This document shows, one piece after another, positions 4,565-54,656 of a stretch of DNA of 64,000 bases. A model generated the notes under the pieces. It had not been told where the DNA came from, made no database searches, and saw only the letters and a list, made by a program, of their open reading frames with translations. A program made the position numbers and the translations under genes. The stretch is from Chloroflexota bacterium (GTDB lineage: Bacteria; Chloroflexota; Dehalococcoidia; JACPEP01), in assembly GCA_016183425.1 (NCBI GenBank), contig JACPEP010000014.1, positions 38,148 to 102,147 on the forward strand, given 5' to 3'. Each line of letters begins with the position of its first letter. Position 1 is the first letter of the stretch.

Positions 4565-4598
4565 TACTTATTTCCTTTTTAAGCCCTGACTATCTTCT

Positions 4599-16856: not shown

Positions 16857-16898
16857 CACGACGCTGGCCGAAAATGTGAGTACCTAGGTTCTTTTAGC

Positions 16899-16985
16899 GG
16901 AGAGGTGCTGGAGTGGCCGATCAGGCGCGCCTGGAGAGCGCGTGTCGCCGTAAGGTGACCGTGGGTTCGAATCCCACCCTCTCCG
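16899..16985 (+). tRNA. tRNA-Ser (anticodon GGA), long variable arm
   Basis: Same acceptor and T-arm as the first copy. Anticodon stem CGCGC/GCGCG with loop CTGGAGA. No encoded CCA. Confidence 0.9.
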
Positions 16986-17050
16986 TCAGCCTTACGCCAA
17001 GGCTACGGCTGGCAAGCCAGATAGAACACAAAGAAAATGGATGAGCAACT

Positions 17051-17686: not shown

Positions 17687-17854
17687 TTTCAACTCCGTGA
17701 ATTGGTAGCGCCTATTGGCAAACAGATTGAGAACCTACTGGCGCGGAACAGGAACCTCCGTGACACGCGCGACCTGCTATTGCCCAAGCTAATTTCCGGC
17801 GAGATCGAAGTATTGGAGCTGGATATTAAGACGGAAAGGTTGGAACATGAATGA
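17687..17854 (+). pseudogene. hsdS: C-terminal remnant (about 55 aa) of a type I restriction-modification specificity subunit HsdS
   Basis: FQLRELVAPIGKQIENLLARNRNLRDTRDLLLPKLISGEIEVLELD. The R(D)xLLPKLISGEI motif is the conserved HsdS C-terminus. An in-frame TGA at 17684 bounds it. No TRD or N-terminal part is present. Confidence 0.55.
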
Positions 17855-20800: not shown

Positions 20801-20814
20801 TGAGGGATAAGGGA

Positions 20815-21732: not shown

Positions 21733-21735
21733 AAA

Positions 21736-22569
21736 TTGACTGAAAAACATCCCTTTACCATCTATTGGGAACCGCCTTTGCAGAACCCCTCCCTCATCGT
21801 GGGCTGGAGCGAGGATGCCGGCAAACTGGGGTCGAAGGTGGTTGACTACCTGACCCAAAAGCTGCCCGCCAAAGAGCTGGCAGAGATGGAACCAACCAGC
21901 TTTTTCCCCCTCGGGGAAGTCGTCGTAGAAGACGACGTGGCTATGTTCCCCACCAGCAAGTTATATTGCTGCCCGGAAAAGAATCTGGTTATCTTCAAAA
22001 GTAGCCTACCCCGGTCCCAGTGGCATAAGTTCCTAAATGCGGTTCTGGATGTGGTAGGCAACTATGGACACCTCTCAGAGGTCTATACCATTGGCAGCAT
22101 GGTTTCTTTGAGTGCCCACACCGTGCCTCGTCAGTTGTTGGCTGTGGTAAATTCAACAGAAATAAAAAGGGCTTTGAGGAAGTACGAGATAGTCGGGAAC
22201 ATGAACTATGAAACCCCGCCTGGCCAAAGGCCGACCCTAAGCTCTTTTCTCCTATGGGTCGCCAAAAGAAGAAACACACCTGCCGCAAGCCTATGGGTAC
22301 CCATACCTTTTTATCTCGTTTCAACGGAAGACCCCTGGGCTTGTCGAAGAGCCCTTGAGTTTCTTGACCAACGACTCAACCTGAGACTGGATTTCAGAGA
22401 CCTGGACGAAGAAGTAGAGAGACAAGCAGCAAAGATAGCTCAGGCAAGGAGCCATTCTCCCCATGTGGATGCCGGCATCAGGAAGTTAGAAAATAACGAG
22501 GGTGTGACCCACGATGAAAGCGAAAGACTTATCCGGGAAATAGAAGAGTTCCTCAAACAAAAGGATTAA
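21736..22569 (+). CDS. PAC2 family protein, paralog 2
   Basis: NPSLIVGWSEDAGKLGSKVVDYL is the same N-terminal motif as paralog 1. The two are tandemly arranged. Confidence 0.55.
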   Translation: MTEKHPFTIYWEPPLQNPSLIVGWSEDAGKLGSKVVDYLTQKLPAKELAEMEPTSFFPLGEVVVEDDVAMFPTSKLYCCPEKNLVIFKSSLPRSQWHKFLNAVLDVVGNYGHLSEVYTIGSMVSLSAHTVPRQLLAVVNSTEIKRALRKYEIVGNMNYETPPGQRPTLSSFLLWVAKRRNTPAASLWVPIPFYLVSTEDPWACRRALEFLDQRLNLRLDFRDLDEEVERQAAKIAQARSHSPHVDAGIRKLENNEGVTHDESERLIREIEEFLKQKD

Positions 22570-37525: not shown

Positions 37526-38473
37526 TTACGGCTCAAGCCAGCGGGCTGTCTTGAGCAGCCCCTCCTCAAGGGGGACGCGAGCTTCAAAGCCAAGAAGGCG
37601 ACGCGCCCGGGAGACGTCGGGAACGCGTCGGGGGACGTCCTCGAAGGGGCGGTGGTGGGAGTAAGGGACAAAGGAGATAGGGGATGCGGAACGGGTGACG
37701 CGGATGACCGTCTGTGCCAACTCCAAGATGGTAGTCTCCCGGTCTGAGCCGATGTTGAATATCTTGCCCTCCCCCTCCGGCGTAGTAGCCGCCAATAGGG
37801 TACCCCGAAGGGTATCTTCGATGTAGGTGAAGGAGCGGCTCTGACTTCCATCGCCATGGACAGTGATGGGTTGATTATCAAGGGCTTGCCTCAAAAAGCG
37901 AGGCACCACGTAGCTTTCAGGGTCCATTCGTGGGCCGTAGCTGTTGAAGTAGCGGACCACCGCTATGAGCAGACCCTGGGCGGCGTAGGCCAGAGCCAGG
38001 TGTTCATCCACCGCCTTGGCGGCGCTGTAGCTCCATCGGGAAACGGTGACCGGCCCCAGAATGCGGTCGTCCTCCTCCCTGAAGGGCACCGCAGTTGATT
38101 TGCCGTAGACCTCGGAGCTGGAGGCCAAAAGCACCTTACATCCCAGGCGGCGGGCCTCCTCAAATACCAGGTGGGTCCCGATAACGTTGGTAGTGATGCA
38201 AGCCAGGGGGTCCTCCACCACCCGCCTCACCCCCACCACCGCCGCCATGTGGTAAACCATGGCGCAACCCCTCATAGCTTCAGCCACCCTTTTGGGGTCA
38301 GTGATGCTCCCCTCTATGAGGCGGAAACGGGGGGCGTCCTCAAGATGGACGAGGTTCTCTGGCCGCCCAGAGGAAAGGTTATCCAGGGCCACCACCTCAT
38401 GCCCCGCCTCCAGCAGCTTATCTACCAGATGGGAGCCGATGTAGCCGGCGCCGCCCGTTACCAGGATTCGCAT
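37526..38473 (-). CDS. NAD-dependent epimerase/dehydratase (UDP-sugar 4-epimerase / UXS-like SDR)
   Basis: MRILVTGGAGYIGSHLVDKL and the YxxxK active site (YSAAKAVDEHLA). Confidence 0.85.
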   Translation of the reverse strand: MRILVTGGAGYIGSHLVDKLLEAGHEVVALDNLSSGRPENLVHLEDAPRFRLIEGSITDPKRVAEAMRGCAMVYHMAAVVGVRRVVEDPLACITTNVIGTHLVFEEARRLGCKVLLASSSEVYGKSTAVPFREEDDRILGPVTVSRWSYSAAKAVDEHLALAYAAQGLLIAVVRYFNSYGPRMDPESYVVPRFLRQALDNQPITVHGDGSQSRSFTYIEDTLRGTLLAATTPEGEGKIFNIGSDRETTILELAQTVIRVTRSASPISFVPYSHHRPFEDVPRRVPDVSRARRLLGFEARVPLEEGLLKTARWLEP

Positions 38474-38559
38474 CTCTTCAAAGCCCTACTTGGAGGGTGT
38501 TTAGCATGGTTGGGAAACGCCTTCCCCCGCCCTGAAGGACATTGACACCCCAGCAGGTA

Positions 38560-38588
38560 TTGACAATTGGGGAGGGACGGCCTAAAAT
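38560..38588 (+). promoter_or_regulatory. Sigma70-like promoter for the BCR/HAD-family operon
   Basis: TTGACA (38560-38565), 17-nt spacer, TAAAAT (38583-38588). A second TTGACA lies at 38542. Confidence 0.4.
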
Positions 38589-38701
38589 TATCGCATATGG
38601 CGAAATTTTTGGACTCCGCAAAAAAAGCGACATCTATGGTTAGCATTATAGCACATTTGGCCGCCGGGGAATAGCCCGGCCGTCTCTGAAGGGAGGAAGC
38701 G

Positions 38702-39832
38702 GTGTCTCCGTTCCAGAAATTCCAGGAATGGCACCAGAATCGCCACCAGTACGCCCAGGAGTGGAAAGCCAGGACAGGGGGTAAGGTTCTGGGCTATTTC
38801 TGTACCTACGTTCCCGAGGAGATCCTGTACGCTGCCGATGTTCTCCCGGTGCGCATTTTAGGCAGCCATGAGCCCGAGGACGTTACCGAGCCCCACATCT
38901 TTGCCATGTTTTGCCCTTTTTGTCGCGACTGCCTGGCCCAAGGTCTCAAGGGGCGCTTCGATTACCTGGATGGCATCATGATCTCCCAGTCCTGCCTCCA
39001 CATCCGTCAGGCCTTCTGGAGCTGGCAGCTCCATATCCCTACATCTTTTAGCTACTACTTGCCTATGCCTCACCACGTCCAAAGCCCTCGGGCCCAGGAT
39101 TATCTTCGGGGAGAGTTGGCCCAGTTCAAAGGGGCGGTGGAGGGGTGGACGGGGCGAACGCTGACCGATGCCGACCTGGACCGGGGCATGGAAATAATGA
39201 ATACCAACCGCCGTCTCATGAAGCAGGTGTATGAGTTAAGGAAAGCGCCTAACCCACCCCTGGTGGGGGCCGATGCTATGGAAATGGTGCTCTCCAGCCA
39301 AATGACCGACAAGAGGGAGCACAACCAAGAACTGGCGGCGCTCCTGGAGAAGCTACCCCAGCAAAAGCGCGACGGCGACCCTCCGGTGCGGCTGATGATC
39401 ATCGGCAGCGAGGACGACGATGTGGCATTTATCAAGATGGCAGAATCCCTGGGGGCTGTCTTCGTGTCCGATGACCATTGCACAGGCACACGATACTTCT
39501 GGAACGAAGCCCTTCCCCAGGAGGATCGTTTGATGGCCATTGCCCAGCGCTACCTGGACCGGACGCCCTGTCCCACCAAGGACTGGCCCGAAAGGCGCCG
39601 CTTTCAGCAGATCCTTCGCCTGGCTAAGGAGTATGGCGTGCAAGGGGCGCTACTTATCCAGCAGAAGTTTTGCGACCCCCACGAAAGTGACATACCGCAA
39701 CTGGCTCGCTTGCTGAAGGAGAATGGCATCCCCAGCTACTTCTTAGAGTTTGATATGACGGTGCCCCTGGGTCCCTTCCGAACCCGGGTAGAGGCCTTCC
39801 TGGAGACACTTCGAGAAGAGGATTTGTTCTAG
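38702..39832 (+). CDS. Benzoyl-CoA reductase / 2-hydroxyacyl-CoA dehydratase family subunit (BcrC/BadD/HgdB-like)
   Basis: GTG start after GGGAGGAAG. The family-typical N-terminus reads KAR.GGKVLGYFCTYVPEEILYAADVLPVRILG. Confidence 0.7.
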   Translation: MSPFQKFQEWHQNRHQYAQEWKARTGGKVLGYFCTYVPEEILYAADVLPVRILGSHEPEDVTEPHIFAMFCPFCRDCLAQGLKGRFDYLDGIMISQSCLHIRQAFWSWQLHIPTSFSYYLPMPHHVQSPRAQDYLRGELAQFKGAVEGWTGRTLTDADLDRGMEIMNTNRRLMKQVYELRKAPNPPLVGADAMEMVLSSQMTDKREHNQELAALLEKLPQQKRDGDPPVRLMIIGSEDDDVAFIKMAESLGAVFVSDDHCTGTRYFWNEALPQEDRLMAIAQRYLDRTPCPTKDWPERRRFQQILRLAKEYGVQGALLIQQKFCDPHESDIPQLARLLKENGIPSYFLEFDMTVPLGPFRTRVEAFLETLREEDLF

Positions 39833-39859
39833 ACCCCACAGCACTTTGGGAGGTGTGTA

Positions 39860-41179
39860 ATGGCGGAAACAACGGATGTCATGCGCTGGCAGACAAAACC
39901 CCTGGAGTGTTGGCGATTAGCCAAGGAGATAAGGGAGCAATACTATCGGAACTATGCCCAGGCCAGGGAGAAGGGGGGTCTGCGGTGGGTGGGTGGAGCC
40001 TGGTCTTTCGGCGCCATTCCCTGCGGCCTGGGAGATGACGTCTACGGCCTGACCAGTGAGCCCTACGGGGCTACCATCGCCTTTAACAAAGACCTGGCCC
40101 TGGAGTGTCAGGAGGCGGCGGAGAAGTATGGCTTCGCCCGGGACCTGTGCTCCTATATGAGAAACTATTGGGGCTCGGTGCTTCTGAACAAGTATGCCTG
40201 GGGGGGGCCTTTCCCCAAGCCGGATTTCGTCTGGCAGGACCATATCTGCTGCAGCCACGCCAAATGGTACCAGGTGGTCAGCGAGCTGGAGGGGGGCATT
40301 CCCTACTTCTGTATCGATGTGGCTGTAGGCCCCTACCATGAGCGCACGGACAGCCGGGTGGAATACATGGTGGGCCAGATGCACGACGGCATCCAGTGGC
40401 TGGAGAAGATCACCGGTCGCCGATACGACGACGAGAAGCTCATAGAGGCAGTAAAGAACGAGATCCGGTGCACCTCCCTGTGGGCCGAGATCTGCACCCT
40501 GAACAAGGCTGTCCCCGCCCCTCTGGACGAGAAATCCATGTACTCCCTCTATGTACACCTGGTTTTGAATCGCTACACGCCGGAGGTGGTCTCCTTTTAC
40601 CAAACCCTGCGGGACGAGGTTAAGGACAGGGTGGCCAATCAGATCGCCGCCTGCCCCACGGAGCGCTGCCGACTGATGACGGATACCCAACCGCCATGGG
40701 CCTTTTTGAAGATCTTCCGGTATATGGAAAGCTATGGGGCAGTCTCCATCGGCTCTCTCTATACCTATGGCCTCATGGGAATCTACGACGACCAGCCCGA
40801 TGGGAGCTGGGGGGCCAAAGTGACTCCCATGGAGCGCGGGGTAGCGATTAAAACGCGCGACCAGGCGCTTCGCGCCTATGCGGAGTGGACATTGGCTAAG
40901 CCTCTATGGCAGCATTTCTACAACCCCGCTTTGAAGAGCCGGATGATGGCCCGGTTAGCCAGGGAATGGCAAGTAAACGGCGTTCTTCTTCACTACAATC
41001 GGGGATGCGAGGGGCTGAGCATCGGCATTGCCGAGAACCGTCTCGCTCTTCTTAAGGAGGGCTTTCCCGTCATGCCCTTCGAAGGCAACATGGGAGATGA
41101 GCGAGAGTTTGACGATACGCGAGTTATGTCTCGCATCGATACCTTTATGGAGACCCTGGGGCTGAGAAAGCTCTACTAA
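39860..41179 (+). CDS. Benzoyl-CoA reductase / 2-hydroxyacyl-CoA dehydratase family subunit (BcrB/BadE/HgdA-like)
   Basis: 439 aa. The Cys-rich segment is characteristic of the catalytic partner subunit. It is paired with the preceding gene. Confidence 0.7.
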
Positions 41180-41189
41180 CCGAAAGGAG

Positions 41190-41966
41190 ATGGGGATGAT
41201 AACGGCGGGCATCGACATGGGTGCCAAGAACCTGAAGGTGGTCATCCTTCGGGACGGCCAGGTGATAGCCTCCAGTCTGATTAGAGTGGGATTTGACACC
41301 CAGGAGGCTCTAGATGAGGGCCTGCAGCATGCCCTGGCAGAGGTGGGCTTGAGCAAAGGGGACATTCAGAGAGTGGTGGCCACGGGGGCGGGAAGAAACT
41401 CCGTGCCCGGCGCCGACGACGCTGTAACGGAGGTTAGAGCCGATTCTGCGGGTATTACCCATATCTCGCCCACCATCAGAACCGTCATCGATGTAGGGGC
41501 AGAGGAGGGACGGGCGGTGCGGTGTAATGCCCAGGGGAAGGTGGTGGACTTCGCCATCAATGAGAAGTGCGCTGCCGGCGCCGGCGCCTTCACCGAGGCC
41601 ATGGCGCGCGCCCTGGAGGTGCCTCTGGAGGAGCTGGGAGCACTGTCCTTAAAGTCGCAGCAAACAGTGCCCATGAACGCCCAGTGCGCCGTCTTCGCCG
41701 AGTCGGAGGTGGTGTCTCTCATCCACGCTCGGACTTCCAAGGAGGACATCGCTCGGGCCGTCCACGACGCCATTGCCAGTCGCATCACCTCTATGGCCCG
41801 TCGCGTTGGGGTAGAGAAGGACGTGGCCCTGGTGGGGGGAGTGGCACGAAATAAAGGTTTTGTAGATTCTTTGCGGCGGGATCTGGATATGGACATTCTC
41901 GTTCCCCCCGATCCGGAGTTTGTGGGAGCCCTGGGGGCGGCACTAATCGCCGCCCAGGGTGCCTGA
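41190..41966 (+). CDS. BadF/BadG/BcrA/BcrD-type ATPase (CoA-enzyme activase, HgdC-like)
   Basis: ITAGIDMGAKNLKVVIL (ASKHA phosphate-1), INEKCAAGAGAF and NAQCAVFAESE (cluster Cys). Confidence 0.8.
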   Translation: MGMITAGIDMGAKNLKVVILRDGQVIASSLIRVGFDTQEALDEGLQHALAEVGLSKGDIQRVVATGAGRNSVPGADDAVTEVRADSAGITHISPTIRTVIDVGAEEGRAVRCNAQGKVVDFAINEKCAAGAGAFTEAMARALEVPLEELGALSLKSQQTVPMNAQCAVFAESEVVSLIHARTSKEDIARAVHDAIASRITSMARRVGVEKDVALVGGVARNKGFVDSLRRDLDMDILVPPDPEFVGALGAALIAAQGA

Positions 41967-41997
41967 AGAACCAGCTTAGAGACGAGGGAGGCGTAAA

Positions 41998-42870
41998 GTG
42001 GCCACAGCGGTAGAGTACTGGAGATGGACGGAGTCCCGATGGACGGCGCCCGATGTAGACTGGCGAGCAGGGAAGGTCATCACCGCCGGCGTGGATGTGG
42101 GCTCGGTGAGCACCCAGGCGGTCATCGTAGTGGATGGGAAGCTATATGCCTATAGCAGCATGAGGACCGGCTCTGACAGCCCCCAGAGTGCCCAGAAAGC
42201 CATGGACTGGGCCACGGAGGGAACGGGAATGACCATAGATAACGTCCGCTACGTGGTGGGGACTGGCTACGGGAGGGTGAACGTGCCCTTTGCTAACCGA
42301 ACTATCACGGAGATCGCCTGTCATGCTCGGGGGGCCAACTTTATCTACGGGCCCTCGGTGCGGACAGTTCTGGACATGGGCGGCCAGGACTGCAAGGCCA
42401 TCCGCTGCGATGAGAAGGGAAAGGTAAGCTCTTTTCTTATGAACGACAAGTGCGCTGCTGGCACCGGGCGGGGGATGGAGGTCTTCGCCGACCTGCTGGC
42501 GGTTCCCATCGAGGATGTGGGGTCTCTGTCGCTATCGGTGGCAGAGGAGCCGCCTCCCGTAAGCAGTACCTGCGTCGTCTTCGCCAAGACAGAGGCCACC
42601 GGCCTGCTGCGAGCGGGGTGGCCCAAAAATCGGGTGGTGGCTGCCTACTGCTCCGCCATGGCGCACCGGGTGGTGACCCTCCTGGAGCGCATCGGGGTGG
42701 AGGCGGAGTTTGCCATCACGGGAGGGATCTCCAAAAACGTGGGCATTGTGCGGCGAATAGAAAAGGAGCTGGGGGTTAAGGCTTTGGAGCCGGGCCTGGA
42801 TGCCCAACTGGCGGGGGGACTAGGGGCAGCTCTCTTTGCCTACGCCCTGGCGGCCAGGGCCGCTTCTTAG
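41998..42870 (+). CDS. BadF/BadG/BcrA/BcrD-type ATPase, second copy
   Basis: ITAGVDVGSVSTQAVIV, NDKCAAGTGRGM and SSTCVVFAKTE. GTG start. Confidence 0.8.
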   Translation: MATAVEYWRWTESRWTAPDVDWRAGKVITAGVDVGSVSTQAVIVVDGKLYAYSSMRTGSDSPQSAQKAMDWATEGTGMTIDNVRYVVGTGYGRVNVPFANRTITEIACHARGANFIYGPSVRTVLDMGGQDCKAIRCDEKGKVSSFLMNDKCAAGTGRGMEVFADLLAVPIEDVGSLSLSVAEEPPPVSSTCVVFAKTEATGLLRAGWPKNRVVAAYCSAMAHRVVTLLERIGVEAEFAITGGISKNVGIVRRIEKELGVKALEPGLDAQLAGGLGAALFAYALAARAAS

Positions 42871-42881
42871 GGGGGGGCTCC

Positions 42882-43169
42882 ATGTTGGCCAACTACGGCT
42901 ATCAGGATGGCTCTGGGAGCTATTTCATAACCATCGATACTGATAAGTGCGATGGCTGCGGCCGATGCGTCACCGCCTGCCCTTATGGGGTTATGGTGGT
43001 AGGGCCCGACGAGGCCGATCCCCTGCGTGACCTTCCCGTGGCCACCGTGGCTGATGAGCATCGCCGAAAGATAAAGTATAGCTGCGGCCCCTGCAAACCA
43101 ACCAGCGGTGTAAGGGAGTTGCCATGCCTTCTGGCCTGTCCATGGGAGGCCCTCGCCCACTCCTGGTAG
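42882..43169 (+). CDS. 2x[4Fe-4S] ferredoxin
   Basis: CDGCGRCVTACP and CGPCK...CLLACP. Confidence 0.7.
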   Translation: MLANYGYQDGSGSYFITIDTDKCDGCGRCVTACPYGVMVVGPDEADPLRDLPVATVADEHRRKIKYSCGPCKPTSGVRELPCLLACPWEALAHSW

Positions 43170-43193
43170 TCCTCAGTAGATACCTGAGCTATC

Positions 43194-45692
43194 ATGCTTT
43201 CCTTGACCATTGATGGTATTTCCGTCGAAGCCTCTCCGGGCCTGACTCTGCTGGAGGCAGCCCAAAGGGGACAGGTTTATATTCCCCGTTTGTGCCACCA
43301 TCCCGACCTGCCGTCTCCCCAAACAGCCCGGGCCGTCAGCCTAGTATACCGAGGTGGCGAGGGGGTGATAGGGGATGACTCCGGGGAGGTCTTCGCTGGC
43401 TGTGGCCTTTGTGCAGTGGAGGTGGAAGGGGGATCGGACCTGGCCTTGGCCTGCGATATGGTAGTAGCTGAGGGCATGGTGGTCCACACCGACACTCCGC
43501 GCCTGCGGGAAATTCGGCAGCAAAGACTATCCACCATCCTGGCCAATCATCCCCACACATGCCTCACCTGTGCCCAGCGCGAGGGTTGCAGTCGAGAGCC
43601 CTGCTCCCTTAACGTGCCCGTGGAGGAGCGCTGCTGCTCCAAGTTCGGCAACTGCGAGTTGCGTAAGGTAGCGGAATACGTGGGAATCAAGGTCGATACC
43701 CCCAGATACCGTTTCCGGAACCTCCCCGTTACTAAGAATGAACCCCTCTTCTCTCGAGACCATAACCTGTGCATCGGCTGCACCCGGTGCGTGAGGGCCT
43801 GTAGCGAGCTGAGAGGGGTGGGGGCGCTGGGCTTTGCCCACCGGAACGGGGAAGTAGCGGTAGGTACGATAGGCCCTTCCCTGCAAGATTCGGGATGCCG
43901 TTTCTGCGGCGCTTGTGTCGAGGTCTGCCCCACGGGGGCGCTCATGGACAAAGGGGTCAAAGGGGAGAGAGAGGCCTTTCTCCTTCCTTGTGTCCATGCC
44001 TGCCCCGCCGGTGTGGATGTTCCTCGCTACCTCCATCTCGTTGCCCGAGGACAATTCTCAGAGGCGACAGCAGTGGTTCGAGAGAGGGTACCCTTTCCCG
44101 GCGCGCTGGGGAGGGTGTGCTTTCACCCTTGCGAATCAGTATGCCGTCGGGGGGAGGTGGACGAGGCGCTGGCCATTTGTGCCCTGAAGCGCGCCGCCGC
44201 CGATGGCGACGCTGGACTATGGAAGGCAAACGTTCCATCAGTGCTCGCCACCGGCAAAAGGGTGGCCATCGTCGGCTCCGGGCCGGCCGGCCTCACGGCT
44301 GCCTATTACCTGGCTCGGCTGGGCCACGGGGTAACGGTGTTTGAATCCCAGGAGGAGGCAGGGGGCATGATGCAGATGGGCATTCCCACCTACCGCCTGC
44401 CTCGGGATGTGCTCAAGAAAGAGGTGACCGACATCCTGGAGCGGGGTGTGGAGTTCAAGGGCGGTGCCTCAGTGGGAGACGCCTGGCTCAACCAACAGGG
44501 ATACGATGCTATTTTTATCGCCGTGGGGGCGCAACTGAGTCGTAAGCTTAACATACCGCGGATCGAGTTAGAGGGGATAGTGTGGGGGGTGGACTTTATG
44601 CGGGGCGTCAATCAAGGGCTGAGAGCTTCCGTAGGAGAACGGGTGGTGGTCATCGGGGGCGGAAACGTAGCAATGGATGTGGCCCTAACCGCGCGACGCC
44701 TGGGGGCACGAGAGGTCCAGTTGGCGTGCTTAGAGTCTCGGGAGGAAATGCCGGCGCACCCTTGGGAAATCCAGGAAGCGGTGGAGGAGGGGGTCGTTAT
44801 TCACCCATCTTGGGGGCCAAAGGCCATCCTGGGGGACGAGGGCCGAGTGACGGGGATAGAGTTGGTTCGCTGCACCTCTGTTTTCGATAGGGAGGGAAAG
44901 TTCAATCCCACCTACGATAGCTCGGTAGTCTCCTCCCTGGATGCGGACATGGTCATCGTGGCCATCGGTCAGGCGGTAGACCTGAGCTTTGTTAAACCTG
45001 AAGATGGAGTGAAGGTCAACCGAGGACTCATCGTAGCCGACGAAAGGCTGGCAACGACTCGGAAGGGAGTCTTTGCGGGCGGCGAGGCGGTGACGGGCCC
45101 CTCTTCGGTTATCCATGCTATTGCTGCGGGGAGGAAGGCAGCCGTAGCCGTGGATCGCTACCTGGGAGGGCGGGGGATCATTGACGAGACATTGATACCC
45201 TTTGAGGAGCCCAATCCCTGGTTGGGGAGAGAGGAGGGCTTTGCCCCTCAAAGCCGGGCCCCCATGCCCTGCCTGCCCGTAGCGGAGCGGCACCAGAGCT
45301 TTGCCGAGGTGGAGTTGGGCTTCAACCCAGAGATGGCCCAACAGGAGGCCCGACGTTGTCTACAGTGCCATCTGAGGCTCCGTATTACACCGGTGACCCT
45401 GCCCCCCGAGCCCTGGCTGGAGTTCAACCAGCACCAGTTAAGCCAGGTTCCATCCTCAGAAGGGGTGTACCAGCTTCTGGATGCCGAGAAGAAGGTCATT
45501 CTTATATTAGGCACCCCTAACCTTAGCAGTGACCTGGCAAAACAGCTAAGCTCTAACCCTAAAGCAAAGTTCTTTGCCTACTGGGAAGAGAAGATGTATA
45601 CTCGTCGGGAGAGTGAGCTCATCCAGCAGTTCACTCAGAAGCATGGCCGCTTGCCGGAGGGTAACGAGCTTTCTGAGGATCTCTTCGATTGA
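43194..45692 (+). CDS. Fused Fe-S / flavin oxidoreductase: NuoG-like 2Fe-2S plus 4Fe-4S N-terminus joined to a GltD/NfnB-like NAD(P)H-FAD module. Putative NAD(P)H:ferredoxin oxidoreductase.
   Basis: N-terminal 2Fe-2S Cys pattern. HPHTCLTCAQREGC. CIGCTRCVRAC...CGACVEVCP. GltD-like CVHACPAG...CFHPCESVC. Dinucleotide folds VAIVGSGPAGLTAAYYLA and VVVIGGGNVAMDVA. Confidence 0.7.
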   Translation: MLSLTIDGISVEASPGLTLLEAAQRGQVYIPRLCHHPDLPSPQTARAVSLVYRGGEGVIGDDSGEVFAGCGLCAVEVEGGSDLALACDMVVAEGMVVHTDTPRLREIRQQRLSTILANHPHTCLTCAQREGCSREPCSLNVPVEERCCSKFGNCELRKVAEYVGIKVDTPRYRFRNLPVTKNEPLFSRDHNLCIGCTRCVRACSELRGVGALGFAHRNGEVAVGTIGPSLQDSGCRFCGACVEVCPTGALMDKGVKGEREAFLLPCVHACPAGVDVPRYLHLVARGQFSEATAVVRERVPFPGALGRVCFHPCESVCRRGEVDEALAICALKRAAADGDAGLWKANVPSVLATGKRVAIVGSGPAGLTAAYYLARLGHGVTVFESQEEAGGMMQMGIPTYRLPRDVLKKEVTDILERGVEFKGGASVGDAWLNQQGYDAIFIAVGAQLSRKLNIPRIELEGIVWGVDFMRGVNQGLRASVGERVVVIGGGNVAMDVALTARRLGAREVQLACLESREEMPAHPWEIQEAVEEGVVIHPSWGPKAILGDEGRVTGIELVRCTSVFDREGKFNPTYDSSVVSSLDADMVIVAIGQAVDLSFVKPEDGVKVNRGLIVADERLATTRKGVFAGGEAVTGPSSVIHAIAAGRKAAVAVDRYLGGRGIIDETLIPFEEPNPWLGREEGFAPQSRAPMPCLPVAERHQSFAEVELGFNPEMAQQEARRCLQCHLRLRITPVTLPPEPWLEFNQHQLSQVPSSEGVYQLLDAEKKVILILGTPNLSSDLAKQLSSNPKAKFFAYWEEKMYTRRESELIQQFTQKHGRLPEGNELSEDLFD

Positions 45693-45719
45693 TGGGCTTA
45701 TGTTCCAAAGGAGACGACT

Positions 45720-45956
45720 ATGGGCGGGAAACCGAAATCTCGGGATGGGCAACTAAGAGGCGAGGGATGGCTGAGACAATTTAGCATCGAGGAACCGCGC
45801 CTCAGCGAGTTTGTAAATCTCTATAAATCCTTGGGTATGGAGGTACACCTGGAGCCCATGACCCCCAGCGAATCCCCGGAAGAGTGCCAGGCCTGTTTTC
45901 TGTCCCAGTGCGACAAGTACAAGACCATCTACACCCGCCCCAAAAGGCAGGGTTAA
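45720..45956 (+). CDS. Small hypothetical Cys-containing protein (78 aa)
   Basis: ORF directly after the oxidoreductase. Contains CQACFLSQC. Uncertain. Confidence 0.3.
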   Translation: MGGKPKSRDGQLRGEGWLRQFSIEEPRLSEFVNLYKSLGMEVHLEPMTPSESPEECQACFLSQCDKYKTIYTRPKRQG

Positions 45957-46099
45957 GACCCCAAAAGCTAGCCCTCCCCTCTGGAAAATATTCTAGGGGA
46001 ATCCCCCAAAAGGTGCCCGACCTGTTTCATATTCGGGTGCAATGGCACAAGATCATTTGTGCCTTACCGAAAGGCAGATTCTAGCCCCCTAAAAACTAG

Positions 46100-46130
46100 C
46101 CTCTCCGCTGAGCGATGCTCAGCGGAGAGG
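46100..46130. terminator. 14-15-bp perfect hairpin between convergent genes (bidirectional terminator candidate)
   Basis: CCTCTCCGCTGAGC-GAT-GCTCAGCGGAGAGG, followed by a TTCTGT stretch. Confidence 0.4.
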
Positions 46131-46159
46131 CGTTCTGTCAACCTTAAAATAGTCCTCTA

Positions 46160-46642
46160 CTAAGTTTTAGGCTTATGACATGCCTGGCACATATCGTTGG
46201 TACGTCCGGCATGGTTGGCAGGGACTTTTGGCGCTCCCGCCACCCCCGTTTCGTGACAGCTTAGGCAGATACCCGTGCGTCCCTCAAGACTGTGGGGAAT
46301 AGGTGGTGGCCCAGCAGATGGGGAGGCGGTAGGAGTGACCGCCGGTCTGGTGGGCGTTGCGGCGGGAGCGGTGGTGGGTGTGGCCGCAGGGGCAGTAGTG
46401 GGTGCGGCCGGTGGTCTGGTAGGTGTCGCTGCGGGGGCAGTAGTGGGTGTCGCTGCGGAAGCAGTGGTCGGCGTAGCCGGCGGTCTGGTGGATGTTGCGG
46501 CGGCGGCTACCGTAGGAGTCGCCGCTGCCTTGGTTGGGGTAGGAGTCGGCTGCGGTTGAGCGCAGGCTAAGCTAAGAGTGGCGATTCCCAGCAGGGTGAT
46601 GACTATTCCGAGGAGCCCCGTTTTACTTTTTTGGGATAACAC
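46160..46642 (-). CDS. Lipoprotein with PT-rich tandem repeats and a C-terminal di-CxxCH (c-type heme-binding-like) domain
   Basis: Lipobox LSLAC. Repeats AATPTTAPAATPTRPP. C-terminus CLSCHETG...CQACHK. Confidence 0.55.
   Translation of the reverse strand: MLSQKSKTGLLGIVITLLGIATLSLACAQPQPTPTPTKAAATPTVAAAATSTRPPATPTTASAATPTTAPAATPTRPPAAPTTAPAATPTTAPAATPTRPAVTPTASPSAGPPPIPHSLEGRTGICLSCHETGVAGAPKVPANHAGRTNDMCQACHKPKT
46300..46550. repeat. Imperfect approximately 45-48-bp tandem DNA repeats encoding the PT-rich linker
   Basis: Reiterated ggtggtgggtgt(g/c)gc(c/t)gc(a/g)gg(g/a)gcagt(a/g)gt(g/c)gg units seen directly in the sequence. They are coding, not CRISPR. Confidence 0.5.
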
Positions 46643-46807
46643 ATCTACCTCCTTGAAGAAAGTCTAATTGTTTCCCAGCTATTTTTTGAAATCCCTAATA
46701 GCCTATCTGGGTGAGTTTTACATAAGTTGTGAAAACAAGAACTATTATAGACCCAAGAGGGTGGCGTGTCAATCACTGTGACACTACAATGGCGTCACTC
46801 TTAGTGA

Positions 46808-49552
46808 TTACTTAGTTACTGTTTTCTGCCGAGCCAAGGCTTGAAGAACACTTGAAGGGGTCATGGGCAGGCGGTGGAGGCGGGCGCCAGTAGCATAGGC
46901 GATGGCGTTGGCGATGGCGGCGGCGGTGGGCACCGGCGTTATCTCCGCTCCCCCCTTGGCCCCGAAGGGGCCGGTGGGCACAGGGTCTTGGACAAAAACA
47001 CTATCTACCTGAGGGACATCCCTGGTGGAGGGGAGCCCATACTCTTTAAAAGTAGCAGTTTGGCCCAGAACAAAGGCTTCCTTCAAGGCGAAGCCGAGGC
47101 CCATGAGGACCCCTCCCTCCACCTGGCGCTGGAAGCCCTGTGGGTTGACGATACGGCCGGCGTCGGCTGCATGGACGATGCGCTTCACCCGGACCTCCCC
47201 CGTTTCCTGGTGGACTTCCACCTGGGCCAGTTGGGCGGCGTAGATATAGAAAGGGCAAATGGCTCCCCGCCCTTCTTCGTCCAGGGGTTGGTAGATGCGG
47301 TTGCGGAACGCCCCTTTGTAGCGAAGAGGAATGCTGCGGCCCCGGCAAATCTCGGCCAGACGCTCTAGGCTTATCCGATGAGAGGGATCGGCGGCGGAGA
47401 AGGCGTAGTCATCCTTCATCTGGACCTGTTCCCTTCTCTCCTCCAAGACATCCGCCGCTGCCTGAAGCAGTGCCTCCTTGAGGGAAGCAGCCGCCCGCCA
47501 CACAGCGTTTCCGGACAGGTAGGTGGTCTTCTGGCCGGAAGTGGAAAGGGCACGCGGCGTTAGATCGGTGTCGGCGGCGGTAAGGACAATAGCTGAGGGA
47601 TGCACCCTCAGCTCTTCGGCGGCAATTTGCAGGAGCATAGTCCACTCCCCCGCCCCCAGATCCACGGCGCCGGTGAAAAGGTGAAATTTGCCGTCTGCCC
47701 CTAGCTCCACGTACGCCTCCGCCTCCAGGTCTTCGCCTGCGAAAGCGCGCCACATGTTCCCTATTCCTATCCCCCGCCGCACTGACCCATCCCCCTTCTC
47801 CTGGGCCCACCTTTTGGCTTCCTCATAGTGGGGACGTATCGCCTCCAGGACAGCACCCACGCCCACGCTCTCATCCAAGACGTGGCTGGTGGCGGTGGCG
47901 GAGCCCATACGAAGGGCATTGCGGCGCCGCAGTTCCCAAGGGTCCAGGCCCAACCGGGACGCCATGATATCCATTTGTTGTTCCATGCCAAAGGCGGTTT
48001 GGGGGCTGGAATAGCCTCGGACAGCGCCGGACAGAGGCGAGTTAGTGCAGACAGTCCATACCTGGACGAAGACGTTGGGAATTTCATAAGGGCCGCTGCC
48101 GCAAATAGCGCCGTGGTAGGGAACGGTGGCCTCATGGCGGGCGCCGGGATAGGCGCCGCCATTGGCCACGATGTCCAGCTTCAATGCGGTTAGCTTGCCC
48201 TCTTTGGTGACCCCCGTTTTGAAGGTCATGGAGAAGGGAAAGCGTTTATGGGTGGTAATGAGATTTTCTTCCCTGGTGAAGACCATCTTGGCCGGGCGCC
48301 CGGTGCGATGGGCCACCAAGGCGGCAAACATGGCATAGTTGGCTCCGATCTTGCCTCCAAAACCGCCCCCCAGGGTGGCGGCCACTACGCGCACCTGCTC
48401 AGGGGGGATGTTCAGCACCCGGACCAGGGTATCCCGGGCGCCGTGGGGGTACTGGATGCTCGCCTCTACCATCATTCGACCTTGATGGTCACGATAGGCC
48501 ACGGCAGCTTCCGGCTCCAGGTAAGCATGTGCCTGGTGGGATGTGCTGTAGGTGTTCTCTACAATAATATCGGCCTGGGCAAAGCCAGCCTCTATGTCTC
48601 CCTTGACCACTTTTTGATAGAAGTCCAGGTTACCCTCAGGATGGAGCTGAGGGGTGCCCGGGCGCATGGCCTCTTGGGGGTCGAAGACGGCGGGGAGCAG
48701 CTCGTAGTCCACCTTTATCAAGGAGAGGGCCTGCTGGGCGATCTCTTCCGTTTCGGCTGCCGCCAGGGCCAGTGCCTGTCCTTTGAAGCAGACCTTCTCT
48801 TCGGCCAGCAAGGGCTGTTGTGTCTTTTTGGGGTGGGGAGCGACGTTTCCCGGAACATCCCGGGCTGTGATGACATCTACCACGCCGGGCAGCTTTCTGG
48901 CCTGGGAGGTATCAATGCTACGAATGTTAGCATGGTGGTGGGGGCTGCGAAGCACCTTGATATGAAGCATGTTTTCCTTGAAGATATCCGCGGCATAGAT
49001 GGCGCGGCCAGTTACCTTTTTCCACGCATCCACCCGAGGCACACTGCGTCCCACCGCCCCATCGCCGTTGTCCCGAACCTTCCTCTCGCCGCCTTTCATC
49101 AGGTGAGCGGCGTAAAGGACGGCATCTATGATACCTGTGTAGCCAGTGCAGCGACACAGGTTGCGCGATAGCCTTTTAGCCACGTCTTCCCGAGTGGGGT
49201 TGGCATTGCTATCCAGAAGAGCTTTAGCCTGAAGGATCATGCCTGGGGTACAAAAGCCACACTGGACGGCCCCCATGTCTATAAAAGCCTCCTGAAGGGG
49301 ATGGAGCGCCTCTGGCGGGGCCAGGCCTTCGATAGTAAGGATGCTCTTGCCCTGGGCCCTCTCCGCCGGCAAACGACATGACATGACCGCTTTCCCATCC
49401 ATGATAACGGTGCAGGCGCCGCACTCACCGCCGTCGCAGCCCTGTTTGGCTCCGGTAAGGCGCAGGTCCCCTCGAAGCACCTGGAGAAGGGAGCGTCCCG
49501 ACGTAACCGCCACGCTCTTCGGCTGTCCGTTAACAGTAAAGGAAATCGTCAT
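46808..49552 (-). CDS. Single-polypeptide molybdo-iron-sulfur aldehyde oxidoreductase (Mop-like, xanthine dehydrogenase family, no FAD subunit)
   Basis: Start set at MTISFTVNGQ. CoxS-like 2x[2Fe-2S] (CDGGECGACTV, CGFCTPG, CRCTGY) is fused to the CoxL-like Mo-pterin domain. The ORF track starts 34 codons earlier, at a TTG. Confidence 0.75.
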   Translation of the reverse strand: MTISFTVNGQPKSVAVTSGRSLLQVLRGDLRLTGAKQGCDGGECGACTVIMDGKAVMSCRLPAERAQGKSILTIEGLAPPEALHPLQEAFIDMGAVQCGFCTPGMILQAKALLDSNANPTREDVAKRLSRNLCRCTGYTGIIDAVLYAAHLMKGGERKVRDNGDGAVGRSVPRVDAWKKVTGRAIYAADIFKENMLHIKVLRSPHHHANIRSIDTSQARKLPGVVDVITARDVPGNVAPHPKKTQQPLLAEEKVCFKGQALALAAAETEEIAQQALSLIKVDYELLPAVFDPQEAMRPGTPQLHPEGNLDFYQKVVKGDIEAGFAQADIIVENTYSTSHQAHAYLEPEAAVAYRDHQGRMMVEASIQYPHGARDTLVRVLNIPPEQVRVVAATLGGGFGGKIGANYAMFAALVAHRTGRPAKMVFTREENLITTHKRFPFSMTFKTGVTKEGKLTALKLDIVANGGAYPGARHEATVPYHGAICGSGPYEIPNVFVQVWTVCTNSPLSGAVRGYSSPQTAFGMEQQMDIMASRLGLDPWELRRRNALRMGSATATSHVLDESVGVGAVLEAIRPHYEEAKRWAQEKGDGSVRRGIGIGNMWRAFAGEDLEAEAYVELGADGKFHLFTGAVDLGAGEWTMLLQIAAEELRVHPSAIVLTAADTDLTPRALSTSGQKTTYLSGNAVWRAAASLKEALLQAAADVLEERREQVQMKDDYAFSAADPSHRISLERLAEICRGRSIPLRYKGAFRNRIYQPLDEEGRGAICPFYIYAAQLAQVEVHQETGEVRVKRIVHAADAGRIVNPQGFQRQVEGGVLMGLGFALKEAFVLGQTATFKEYGLPSTRDVPQVDSVFVQDPVPTGPFGAKGGAEITPVPTAAAIANAIAYATGARLHRLPMTPSSVLQALARQKTVTK

Positions 49553-49856
49553 CTCTTCCAAGGTTTTATCCTCTCTAAAAACCCCATCGCTGGCGTTAGG
49601 CCATGTAACGAAAACTATGTCAACTATTATGCCCCATGCCACCTCAGAAGGCAACCTCTTTCCCTTTCGAGGCTGTTTAATAACGGGGGCTTCAAGGGAG
49701 CCTCTTGATAGGGGTCCGGAGGTAGCCCCCTCCCCGCCTCTGGCGGGGACAAATTTCCAGGGCGGGTGGGTAAGAAGAGATGTTCGCTCTCTATTTCTTG
49801 TCTCGCCAGTGTGGGGTTGCTACAATGGGCCTGTGACAACCAGGGGAAAGTGGCTC

Positions 49857-52896: not shown

Positions 52897-54075
52897 CTAG
52901 TTCTTAAATATCAGGATATTCATGCCGCCGATGCCGGAGTTCTGCACCATGCCCACTTTGGGGCCGTTGCCTTTCCTTCCCTTTACCTGGCGTGGCCCGG
53001 CTTCTCCCATAAGCTGACGGTAGATTTCGTGGATCATGCCGGTGCCGGTGGCGCCGATGGGGTGGCCCCGGCTGAGGAGACCGCCGTCGGTGTTAACGGG
53101 CATTTTACCGTTGATCTCCGTTTTACCTTCCCAGACAGCGCGGGCGCCCTCTCCTTTATTGAACAGGCTCAGAGCTTCGATGGCGGAGATGAGGCCAGGG
53201 GTGAAGGCATCGTGTACTTGGGCCACCTCCACATCTTCGGGACCGATACTAGCCCTCTCATAGGCTTTTTTGGCCAGCTTCTCCAAGGGCCCCTCCATGA
53301 CCTCCGGATCCTCGGAGACCAGAGCTCCATCCTCGCCCATCTGTTTGACGTAGGCGCCGGTACCGCAGGCGTGGGCGACTACAGTGACCCAGCGACTCTT
53401 GTACTGGGCAGCCTTCTCCTTGGCACAGACGACGACAGCGCCAGCGCCGTCAGTGGTAGGAGAGCACTGAAGGAGGGTTATGGGGTCGGCAATAAGGCGA
53501 GAGTTCATGACCTCCTCTAACGTGCATGCCTTCTGATACTGGGCATTGGGGTTCAGTTCCCCATTGCGGTGGGAGACCACGGACACTTGGGCGAACATCT
53601 CTGGGGTGGCTCCGTAGTCATGTATGTAGCGCCGGGCCCGCATGGCGTACCAGCTAGGGGTCACCGCCAGGCCCATGACCTGGTCGTAGCTGGACGTCTC
53701 CGTCACCTGGATGAGCCCCCGCTGCATTTTCTCAAACCCCGCCACTAGAGCCACGTCGTACACCCCGTTGGCCACCGCCAAGTAAGCCTCCCGAAAGGCG
53801 GTGGAGCTGGAGGCGCAGGCCTGCTCGAAATTTATCACCGGGATGCCGGTCTGCCCCAACTCAGTAATTACCCGCAGCCCTACCCCCATACCACCGTTGC
53901 CGGCGCCGGGTAGTACGCGCCCGCAATAGGCCGCCTCGATATCCCGGAAAGGAACGTTGGCGTCCTGGAGAGCCTTCCATATGGCCTCCCGACCCATTTC
54001 CTCAACGCTCTTCTCCGGAAACCGGCCAAACCGATGGAGCCCTGCCCCTAGAATAACAACCTCTCGCATTGCCAA
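52897..54075 (-). CDS. Thiolase-like protein (SCP-x / lipid-transfer type, DUF35 partner)
   Basis: VVILGAGLHRFGRF...INFEQACASSSTAFREA (catalytic Cys) plus the C-terminal thiolase fold. Confidence 0.8.
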   Translation of the reverse strand: MAMREVVILGAGLHRFGRFPEKSVEEMGREAIWKALQDANVPFRDIEAAYCGRVLPGAGNGGMGVGLRVITELGQTGIPVINFEQACASSSTAFREAYLAVANGVYDVALVAGFEKMQRGLIQVTETSSYDQVMGLAVTPSWYAMRARRYIHDYGATPEMFAQVSVVSHRNGELNPNAQYQKACTLEEVMNSRLIADPITLLQCSPTTDGAGAVVVCAKEKAAQYKSRWVTVVAHACGTGAYVKQMGEDGALVSEDPEVMEGPLEKLAKKAYERASIGPEDVEVAQVHDAFTPGLISAIEALSLFNKGEGARAVWEGKTEINGKMPVNTDGGLLSRGHPIGATGTGMIHEIYRQLMGEAGPRQVKGRKGNGPKVGMVQNSGIGGMNILIFKN

Positions 54076-54111
54076 CCTCCCTTAATCTTTTTCCTTAACC
54101 AGGGGGAAATA

Positions 54112-54558
54112 TTATCTTTTTTTAGCAACGGGCTTAAATTTGAAGCCCATTACCTCTTGCCCCGCCTCGTTATCCTTTATCTTCTCAATTACCATGTCCA
54201 TTTCCATCCCTATCTTCAGGTCGTTCAGGTCGTCGCAGGCGATGGCCGTGTGCACGGTAACCCCTTCGGGCAACACCACCTGCCCCACAGCGTAAGGGGC
54301 GATCATGGCCGAGCCGGGGAGGGTTTGGCGGATTATGGTATAGGTGAAGAGCTTTCCCCGATTGCTCAAAGGTGTTTCTTTTAGATCAGGGCTGCTGCAC
54401 CAGGCACAGAAGCTGCGCCTGGGGAAGAAAACCTCGCCGCATCCCTGGCACTTAACCCCGACAAGGTAACCCTTTTCCTGAGGGGAGGAAGGTATCTTGA
54501 ACAAACCCTCCTTTATGGCTACTTTTTGCCTCTTTTCCTGCACCAACGTCTCCTCCAT
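54112..54558 (-). CDS. DUF35 OB-fold / zinc-ribbon acyl-CoA-associated protein
   Basis: VKCQGCGEVFFPRRSFCAWCSS is the rubredoxin-like zinc ribbon and is followed by the OB-fold. It is the typical thiolase partner. Start set at the ATG after GAAAGGGG. Confidence 0.7.
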   Translation of the reverse strand: MEETLVQEKRQKVAIKEGLFKIPSSPQEKGYLVGVKCQGCGEVFFPRRSFCAWCSSPDLKETPLSNRGKLFTYTIIRQTLPGSAMIAPYAVGQVVLPEGVTVHTAIACDDLNDLKIGMEMDMVIEKIKDNEAGQEVMGFKFKPVAKKR

Positions 54559-54656
54559 ATCGCCCCTTTCTAGAAAGCAGTTGTAGAACAATTATATAGG
54601 GAAATTGAGCGGTAGACAATTCCCTGTCCGCACACGGTTAAACCGATTTCACGGCA

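Follow-up and report, generated by a model that had tools for sequence, protein, structure and literature searches.

A compact seven-gene module, probably a Bzd-type class I benzoyl-CoA reductase operon with its electron-supply genes, on a Chloroflexota contig

The stretch of DNA described here, in the following called the window, comprises 64 kb out of the 134.6-kb contig JACPEP010000014.1 of a Chloroflexota metagenome-assembled genome (MAG). On its plus strand it carries the genes bzdN, bzdO, bzdP and bzdQ, followed by genes for a ferredoxin, for a flavo-iron-sulfur protein of 832 amino acids (aa) and for a conserved small protein of 78 aa. Together with the ferredoxin and the 832-aa protein, bzdNOPQ very probably constitute a Bzd-type class I benzoyl-CoA reductase operon of the Aromatoleum/Azoarcus type. 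Reductases of this class use ATP to dearomatize benzoyl-CoA under oxygen-free conditions. This assignment is carried by the orthology of subunits N, O and Q, the conservation of functional residues, the layout of the operon and the linkage of its genes, with benzoyl-CoA as the presumed substrate. The genes and signals of the operon are the following:

38560-38588, plus strand: promoter-like site TTGACA-17-TAAAAT, 11/12 consensus matches, about 113 nucleotides (nt) upstream of the bzdN start codon
38702-39832, plus strand: BzdN, 376 aa, electron-transfer subunit of the catalytic dimer with a predicted double-cubane [8Fe-9S] cluster
39860-41179, plus strand: BzdO, 439 aa, substrate-binding catalytic subunit with an aqua-[4Fe-4S] cluster
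41190-41966, plus strand: ASKHA ATPase at the BzdP position, 258 aa, one of the two subunits of the ATP-dependent electron activator
41998-42870, plus strand: BzdQ, 290 aa, ASKHA ATPase, the other subunit of the activator dimer
42882-43169, plus strand: ferredoxin at the BzdM position, 95 aa, 2x[4Fe-4S], Pfam Fer4 families
43194-45692, plus strand: flavo-iron-sulfur protein at the BzdV position, 832 aa
45720-45956, plus strand: seventh gene, conserved small protein, 78 aa, ribosome-binding site (RBS) AAGGAGA
46099-46131, no strand assigned: hairpin between convergent transcription units, perfect, 15 bp, GC-rich (11/15 pairs G-C)

The listing of open reading frames (ORFs) gives six plus-strand ORFs (376, 439, 258, 290, 95 and 832 aa) spaced 10-31 nt apart, and confirms the sizes given in an earlier interpretation made from the letters of the DNA, here called the sequence-only reading. 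The span proposed there, 38560-45956, starts at the -35 hexamer of the promoter-like site and ends at the stop codon of the 78-aa ORF, a gene which that reading left undescribed. A second gene caller independently predicted the 78-aa ORF on Logan contigs, which were assembled from short reads of this organism. None of the seven ORFs is disrupted, and the GC content of the operon matches that of its surroundings. The promoter-like site is a consensus match only, and the regional count of such sites is not above the shuffled expectation. The hairpin was scored as the terminator of a cytochrome gene on the minus strand and is not followed by a T-run on the plus strand; it may also terminate the bzd transcript. 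A scan of positions 38000-47000 for RNA elements with Rfam gave nothing at E <= 0.1.

The Pfam matches of the operon ORFs far exceed chance: HGD-D was found in BzdN (E 3e-85) and BzdO (E 7e-49), BcrAD_BadFG in the BzdP-position ATPase (E 6e-49) and in BzdQ (E 1e-50). NCBIfam equivalog models were read against their curated cut-offs in bits. BzdN scores 493.5 bits with TIGR03190 (cut-off 453.8), BzdO 670.1 bits with TIGR03191 (cut-off 448.6) and BzdQ 428.6 bits with TIGR03192 (cut-off 380.2). The BzdP-position ATPase scores 235 bits with the generic activase model TIGR00241 (cut-off 125); no BzdP-specific model was present among the NCBIfam matches, and the assignment of P is at the level of domain and gene position. 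A search of the PDB matched BzdO to 8s02_A, the BzdO of Aromatoleum sp. CIB (651 bits, 62% identity), and BzdN to 8s02_B, the BzdN of the same strain (492 bits, 55% identity). With N and O as queries, HadBC gave 110-141 bits and MbdON 50-109 bits. The GenBank entries already name N, O and Q "benzoyl-CoA reductase, bzd-type, subunit N/O/Q" (N is MBI2303966.1, Q is MBI2303969.1), the 95-aa protein "4Fe-4S binding protein", the 832-aa protein "FAD-dependent oxidoreductase" and the 78-aa protein "hypothetical protein".

The sequence-only reading had recognized a class I layout like that of benzoyl-CoA reductase (BCR), with a dedicated ferredoxin and a flavoprotein fused from a NuoG N-terminus and a GltD-like part, and this is borne out by Pfam domains and gene order. 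Its description of the catalytic subunits as BcrC/BcrB- or HgdB/HgdA-like holds for the membership in the BCR/HAD family; a Thauera-type or dehydratase identity has to be given up in favor of the Bzd type on the NCBIfam and PDB scores. Thauera-type Bcr was rejected as a candidate with BcrB at 63 bits (cut-off 487) and BcrC at 141 bits (cut-off 421; TIGR02260/TIGR02263), and for the ATPases with BcrA at 108-142 bits (cut-off 578) and BcrD at 114-121 bits (cut-off 313).

Active-site residues were mapped with the list from the BzdNO structure paper (PMC11971306). In BzdO the ligands of the [4Fe-4S]-OH2 cluster are kept as C97, C130 and C383 (reference Cys95, Cys128, Cys380), and the catalytic acid/base pair as E67 and H133 (reference Glu65, His131). 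Also kept are the ring contacts W48, Y99, L305 and L386 (reference Trp46, Tyr97, Leu302, Leu383) and the thioester contacts Y99, Y301 and Q277 (reference Tyr97, Tyr298, Gln274). Among 65 BzdO sequences of other phyla, 62-63 have these cluster, catalytic and pocket residues invariant or conserved. BzdN has seven Cys in common with Aromatoleum BzdN, and by this conservation the six Cys ligands of the [8Fe-9S] cluster are presumed to be kept; the shell of that cluster is kept as R51, R264, R287 and H327 (reference Arg53, Arg267, Arg290, His330). Three BzdO sequences of the same set also alter His133, Gln277, Leu305 and Glu384; by these substitutions they may be paralogues with other substrates.

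The two ATPases are 38% identical to each other. Each carries two bridging-cluster Cys in the motifs NxKCAAG and CxVFA, corresponding to the cluster-ligating Cys of HgdC/HadI, as the sequence-only reading had claimed. It had also called both proteins atypically short, which does not hold: BzdQ matches TIGR03192, a profile of 293 positions, end to end, and the solved MbdQ and MbdP have 269 and 273 aa. The best PDB matches of the BzdP-position ATPase are HadI (205 bits) and MbdQ (195 bits). Its nucleotide motifs are non-canonical, GAKNLK at residues 10-17 and DVGAEEGR at residues 101-108, where HgdC, HadI, MbdQ and MbdP, the four proteins covered by the motif alignment (the DCCP activase was left out), have GSTxxK and D(I/M)GGQ(D/T)xK. 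BzdQ has the canonical phosphate-2 motif DMGGQDCK, but GSVSTQ in the first motif. GAEEG(R/K) is present in 54 of 119 P and Q sequences derived from the loci compared below and therefore marks the P subunits of this clade. Judged by these motifs, the activator may be a dimer with one canonical ATP site only.

The ferredoxin carries the motifs CxxCxxCxxxCP and CxxCx10CxxxCP. The spacing of the latter would resemble that of the second motif in low-potential ferredoxins of the Alvin type, for example the BCR ferredoxin of Thauera. A homologue of about 95 aa follows Q in at least 35 of the 83 BzdO loci analysed, and orthologs of the 832-aa protein stand directly after the ferredoxin in 51 of them.

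The 832-aa protein lies under every NCBIfam cut-off, and its Pfam domains are Fer2_4, NADH-G_4Fe-4S_3, Fer4, Fer4_20, Pyr_redox_2 and DUF7508. In order, it consists of a [2Fe-2S] domain, a His-ligated [4Fe-4S] domain, an extra 4-Cys site, a 2x[4Fe-4S] domain, a GltD/NfnL-type FAD/NAD(P)H module and the DUF7508 tail. The part from residue 60 to 258 resembles the FeS domains found at the N-terminus of formate dehydrogenases, hydrogenases and NuoG. Residues 265-726 have their best match in the NADPH-binding, NfnL-type module of NfnA from Caldicellulosiruptor NfnABC (9BOV; phmmer E 8e-125) and also match StnC (8OH5) and an archaeal NfnA (9N5U), with the large subunit of NfnSL ranking after these. 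An AlphaFold model built with 36 orthologs (predicted local distance difference test, pLDDT, 79) was compared by Foldseek, which placed NfnA (9bov_A, E 1e-50) first, with StnC (8oh5_C) and NfnA of T. sibiricus also found; these NfnA/StnC matches have E-values of 1e-50 to 1e-45 over roughly 750-820, at most 824, aligned columns. Common to NfnA/StnC (9BOV, 8OH5, 9N5U) and the 832-aa protein is a GltD/NfnL-type FAD and NADPH module wired to a HydA/NuoG-like FeS chain. In contrast to NfnA/StnC, the 832-aa protein has no formate-dehydrogenase-like domain, its FeS domains precede the flavin module instead of following it, and it adds the DUF7508 C-terminus and an invariant 4-Cys site.

The FAD of NfnABC accepts hydride from NADPH and relays single electrons via FeS clusters; bifurcation sits elsewhere, on the NuoF/NuoE-like B and C subunits (PMC11829005). 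Genes for BfuB (NuoF-like, FMN) or BfuC (NuoE-like) were found neither among the scanned window ORFs (30 ORFs of at least 150 aa; five of 171-209 aa were left out) nor beside the orthologs of the 832-aa protein in loci L085-L088. Most simply, the 832-aa protein would act as an NAD(P)H:ferredoxin oxidoreductase, as has been proposed for BzdV (PMC5658619). Family-invariant extras of the protein are the 4-Cys site (C137, C147, C148, C154) and a CxxC at 722/725 preceding the DUF7508 tail. A further extra is a stretch of about 35 aa inserted into the [2Fe-2S] domain (residues 35-69), and the region of the extra Cys site is poorly modelled by AlphaFold, with pLDDT < 50 at residues 122-146.

The 78-aa protein has the core W..EPRLSE..Y..EV.LE..CxxC..Y..IYTR, of which EPRLSE..Y..EV.LE..CxxC..Y..I is invariant, and no match in Pfam or NCBIfam. 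All named ones among its 194 relatives are called "hypothetical protein", and none of the relatives contains a Pfam domain. Matches by tblastn lie just 3' of the gene for the ~840-aa protein, as the 832-aa family is called in other genomes, in 23 loci, and the small protein consistently accompanies the ~840-aa protein. Between it and the DUF7508 tail of the 832-aa protein no similarity was found. Its AlphaFold model is a small beta-alpha-beta-alpha-beta unit (pLDDT 77) for which Foldseek gave no match in the PDB (best E 0.59). In the Aromatoleum cluster the small ORFs bzdS/T/U presumably lie between bzdM and bzdV.

Relatives of BzdO were sought in one genome per species and are present in at least 529 species representatives. 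The best 80 loci, whose BzdO proteins are 65-71% identical to that of the window, were taken for comparison; their hosts include Planctomycetota, Gemmatimonadota, Ignavibacteria, Acidobacteriota, Aminicenantes, Zixibacteria, Anaerolineales, Thermoplasmata, Bathyarchaeia and others. Aromatoleum is absent among these 80 loci, and a search of a plasmid collection for the annotated Aromatoleum/Azoarcus bzd cluster gave only a 24%-identical HAD-family gene of Rhizobium. In a neighbor-joining tree of BzdO, calculated without bootstrap and without a non-Bzd outgroup, the window protein forms an isolated branch. No species representative exceeds 71.6% identity to it, and Planctomycetota (71.6%) stand closer than Anaerolineales (67%).

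Gene families near BzdO were counted by clustering the ORFs of 83 BzdO loci. Crotonase (ECH) genes occur at 25 of the 83 loci, SDR genes at 23, thiolase genes at 20 and Had genes at 13. Reverse look-ups starting from ~840-aa orthologs of an Asgard archaeon, a member of the Nezhaarchaeales and a bacterial MAG found the gene beside two HGD-D genes, two BcrAD genes and a ferredoxin gene in all three cases (3/3), and in the Asgard locus a 79-aa gene again lies 3' of the ~840-aa gene. The block N-O-P-Q/ferredoxin/~840-aa/~78-aa was seen in about 90 loci from Chloroflexota to Asgard archaea; the ferredoxin, the 832-aa and the 78-aa proteins co-occur with bzdNOPQ across phyla. In two Nezhaarchaeales loci (L086 and L087, positions 1-10517) an opposite-strand pair of DEAD-box helicase and DUF790 genes splits bzdNOPQ from the ferredoxin and an 838-aa gene. 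Locus L088 (1922-16293) has three consecutive HGD-D genes, and a NifH-like/Oxidored_nitro set lies about 1 kb 3' of its 833-aa gene, past a divergent regulator gene.

Among characterized systems, the window resembles BzdNOPQ-BzdM-BzdV of Aromatoleum (Azoarcus) sp. CIB in its set of subunits and in the order N-O-P-Q, ferredoxin, then flavo-FeS oxidoreductase. It differs from that cluster in having no adjacent BzdR, bzdW/X/Y (dch/had/oah) or bzdA ligase gene, in the 78-aa CxxC gene after the oxidoreductase and in its host, an uncultured member of the Chloroflexota. With BcrCBAD of Thauera aromatica and MbdONQP of Thauera/Aromatoleum (9G87, 9GAI) it shares class and logic but is distant in sequence: an ASKHA ATPase heterodimer with a bridging [4Fe-4S] cluster feeds a HAD-like catalytic heterodimer, and a ferredoxin is the donor. 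Unlike the BCR and MBR types, which form stable tetramers, the modules of Bzd-type enzymes are proposed to come together transiently (PMC11971306).

The Anaerolineales loci L062 and L063 (in full) have the block N-O-P-Q-ferredoxin-~830-aa-small protein in common with the window; the contig of L079 stops after P. The genomes of all three, like the window, hold a thiolase/DUF35 pair. In these relatives the block lies inside a pathway operon with PaaX-like, SDR, ECH, Had, Oah and 3-hydroxyacyl-CoA dehydrogenase genes that the window lacks. In L062 a PaaX-like regulator, thiolase/DUF35, an SDR and a dienoyl-CoA-hydratase-like ECH gene precede N-O-P-Q-fdx-V in the 5' part, and the 3' part contains GNAT, a phosphatase-like gene, a small protein, Had, Oah and 3-hydroxyacyl-CoA dehydrogenase; Had scores 484 bits with TIGR03201 (cut-off 339) and Oah 564 bits with TIGR03200 (cut-off 464). 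Because the block of L062 lies within a full pathway operon, the clade is tied to benzoyl-CoA degradation. The module of the window is bare, unlike its Anaerolineales relatives, and consists of the reductase and electron-supply block only.

Electrons would most likely flow through the gene products as follows. NAD(P)H would reduce the GltD/NfnL-type FAD of the 832-aa protein, from which single electrons would pass down its FeS chain and be handed to the 95-aa ferredoxin. The ferredoxin would reduce the bridging [4Fe-4S] cluster of BzdP-BzdQ, the potential of which would be lowered by hydrolysis of MgATP, and the electron would then reach, by way of the [8Fe-9S] cluster in BzdN, the [4Fe-4S]-OH2 cluster in BzdO. 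There benzoyl-CoA, or a very close analogue, would be reduced to cyclohexa-1,5-diene-1-carbonyl-CoA by hydrogen-atom transfer and a subsequent electron/proton step, as proposed for Aromatoleum BzdNO (PMC11971306). For this locus we infer which way the electrons run, that NAD(P)H donates them, the ATP stoichiometry, what the substrate is and any role of the 78-aa protein.

Several points weigh against the assignment as a benzoyl-CoA reductase operon. No Bzd-type holoenzyme has ever been isolated and BzdNO alone gave the reverse reaction only (PMC11971306), so that the function rests on homology even for the Aromatoleum enzyme. With both the phosphate-1 and the phosphate-2 motif of P non-canonical, two active ATP sites are not assured. 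Electron transfer from NADPH to a low-potential ferredoxin would be thermodynamically uphill, and a NuoE/F-like or NfnS-like bifurcation partner does not appear to be encoded nearby. The label BzdV for the 832-aa protein is given by analogy, from gene position, domain content and the naming in PMC5736913, PMC8163825 and PMC6849830. Among the scanned window ORFs there is no crotonase/dienoyl-CoA hydratase, no Had or Oah and no AMP-forming or benzoate-CoA ligase. One of the seven pocket residues differs, reference Ser44 being Gly46 in the window BzdO. Finally, the operons of tetrahydronaphthoyl-CoA (THNCoA) reductases are Bzd-type paralogues that act on another substrate and have an identical N-O-activase-Q-Fd-"BzdV" layout (PMC6849830).

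The last three points bear on the view that the window encodes a Bzd-type paralogue reducing another aryl- or alicyclic-CoA ester, e.g. a 3-substituted benzoyl-CoA or a tetrahydronaphthoyl-CoA-like compound, which we consider unlikely. In naphthalene and phenanthrene degraders, THNCoA-reductase operons of matching layout are auto-annotated as bzd-type (PMC6849830), and dch, had and oah were not found in the window. Ser44 of Aromatoleum BzdO forms a hydrogen bond to Glu65 and sits 3.6-4.0 A from ring carbon C3 (PMC11971306); its replacement by Gly46 frees space beside that carbon, and the isolated branch of the window BzdO, with at most ~72% identity to anything else, fits a separate substrate as well. 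However, Gly is the usual residue at this position in the clade (61 of 65 environmental BzdO sequences), including the Anaerolineales operons with genuine Had and Oah, and the remaining ring and thioester contacts are identical to those in the benzoyl-CoA complex of Aromatoleum BzdO. The three pocket-altered BzdO sequences look unlike the window protein, and N and O score well over the equivalog cut-offs. The bareness of the module also fits a host that is no benzoate degrader and in which the module is an orphan or has been repurposed, being a cassette that was acquired recently and is not used, or one put to another reductive task; this appears very unlikely. Cell-envelope genes flank the module with no regulator, ligase or ring-opening genes among them, the nearest BzdO is from Planctomycetota (71.6%, compared to 67% for Anaerolineales), as would fit lateral transfer, and equally bare modules occur in the Asgard and Nezhaarchaeales loci. 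Against this stand seven intact ORFs with functional residues kept, tight spacing, a promoter-like site and a GC content like that of the surroundings. Pathway genes are moreover often dispersed, the window covers 64 kb of the 134.6-kb contig, and two features that recur at bzd clusters, the thiolase/DUF35 pair and the Mop-like enzyme, lie in the vicinity.

The Pfam domains HGD-D and BcrAD_BadFG would also suit a 2-hydroxyacyl-CoA dehydratase and its activator, or a double-cubane reductase (DCCP) that works independently of CoA, and HadBC and DCCP are the next-best solved relatives. The models score far under their cut-offs, with HadB at 147 bits (cut-off 750), HadC at 150 bits (cut-off 700) and the double-cubane model NF040772 at 173 bits for N and 48 bits for O (cut-off 350), and the PDB scores are four to six times under those to BzdNO. 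Two distinct ATPase genes are present, not one for a single homodimeric activator, and His133 is kept, where HadB has Ala (PMC11971306). The sequence-only reading had named, as the finding that would speak against it, a grouping of the two catalytic subunits with dehydratases that do not use CoA or with unrelated HAD-like families; no such grouping was obtained, the scores favoring BzdNO, and by these scores a dehydratase or DCCP can be regarded as effectively refuted.

Compatible with a benzoyl-CoA reductase operon, yet improbable in our estimation, is that the block N-O-P-Q/ferredoxin/~840-aa/~78-aa forms a self-contained unit in which the electron input follows a so far undescribed mechanism. 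It could then be, for instance, that NAD(P)H-driven reduction of a very low-potential ferredoxin is enabled by a second acceptor of higher potential, e.g. the CxxC dithiol/disulfide of the 78-aa protein, and the divergent, possibly inactive ATP site of BzdP might lower the ATP cost. If true, this would explain how energy-limited strict anaerobes afford an "ATP-dependent" ring reductase.

The locus itself is an ordinary, well-precedented and already auto-annotated system, and for these reasons of low interest. In 2017, bzdNOPQ, bzdM and bzdV were reported together with a complete benzoate pathway in the deep-sea Chloroflexi DscP3, Dsc4 and An-B22 (PMC5736913), and in 2019 class I bzd genes followed in MAGs of Anaerolineae, Dehalococcoidia, Aminicenantes, Thermoplasmata and Bathyarchaeota (PMC6472368). 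The sequence-only reading had thought a Chloroflexota host noteworthy, but because of these two reports the host is no surprise, and the bzd-type naming exists in GenBank. For the wider family, ATP-dependent ring reduction in strict anaerobes is an acknowledged energetic puzzle (PMC6472368, PMC5736913). Interest lies with this family, namely with the uncharacterised electron-input protein, the small CxxC protein and the divergent site of BzdP, and the window offers a compact intact seven-gene module that might be expressed as a cassette.

Upstream of the operon, on the opposite strand, are genes for an NAD-dependent epimerase, a Wzy/TPR protein, a GT4 transferase and a UDP-glucose dehydrogenase. 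Downstream and convergent to it are a small cytochrome gene, a Mop-like enzyme, a PMT_2 membrane protein, an MBL-fold protein and the thiolase/DUF35 pair. Two of these features recur near bzd clusters:

46808-49654, minus strand: Mop-like molybdenum hydroxylase, 948 aa, with 2x[2Fe-2S] and MoCo domain and without FAD domain (Pfam)
52897-54591, minus strand: thiolase-domain protein (392 aa) and DUF35/OB-fold protein (159 aa), a BbsB/BbsA-like pair 7 kb downstream

The sequence-only reading had seen in the neighbors parts of a matching pathway. Some support for this comes from the Mop-like enzyme, homologues of which lie near BzdO in 8 of the 83 loci, and from the thiolase/DUF35 pair, found at 9 of them including all three Anaerolineales loci (the window is counted in both numbers). 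It fails for the MBL-fold protein, whose best match, glyoxalase II, is under the model cut-off, and for the acyl-CoA dehydrogenase at 14205-15359, which is located 23 kb off amid a sirtuin, a pyruvate-kinase-C-domain protein and a LiaF-like gene; both appear unrelated. The thiolase/DUF35 pair is possibly accessory to the bzd operon, and the same is possible for the Mop-like enzyme, whose gene is convergent to the operon. The latter is under all NCBIfam cut-offs (aldehyde oxidoreductase 652 bits, cut-off 1100). It was also considered as a fused 4-hydroxybenzoyl-CoA reductase, which was rejected with HcrA at 518 bits (cut-off 995) and HcrC at 158 bits (cut-off 258), the generic aldehyde oxidoreductase scoring better.

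In the Zixibacteria RBG-1 locus L037 (13273-19243) a Mop-like enzyme stands directly 3' of the ~840-aa gene on the same strand and is followed by a MocA-type cytidylyltransferase. Loci L038, L045, L049, L064, L066 and L081 have a Mop-like homologue near the ~840-aa gene, with an XdhB-like FAD subunit nearby. This recurrence hints at a functional link of the Mop-like molybdoenzyme to bzd clusters.

Between the bzd operon and the Mop-like gene lies a compact minus-strand unit (46772-46099) with a perfect match to the sigma-70 consensus, TTGACA-17-TATAAT (46772-46744), and the RBS AAGGAGG. The 160-aa product of its ORF (46642-46160) has a signal of the lipoprotein type (LSLAC), a long linker rich in Pro, Thr and Ala, two CxxCH haem motifs and a weak match to Paired_CXXCH_1 (E 6e-4). 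These features point to a dihaem cytochrome c tethered to the membrane as the probable product. On the Logan contigs, a 74-aa ORF on the opposite strand was predicted at this position instead.

Elsewhere in the window, ORFs of 1308, 533 and 408 aa (7173-11099, 4599-6200 and 17847-19073, respectively) have no Pfam match at E <= 1e-6. A tandem pair of genes of the PAC2 family (proteasome-assembly-chaperone-like; 310 and 277 aa) is located at 20800-22569. A tandem pair of tRNA-Ser genes (CGA, GGA) lies at 16767-16987 and a tRNA-Gly gene (CCC) at 3942-4017.

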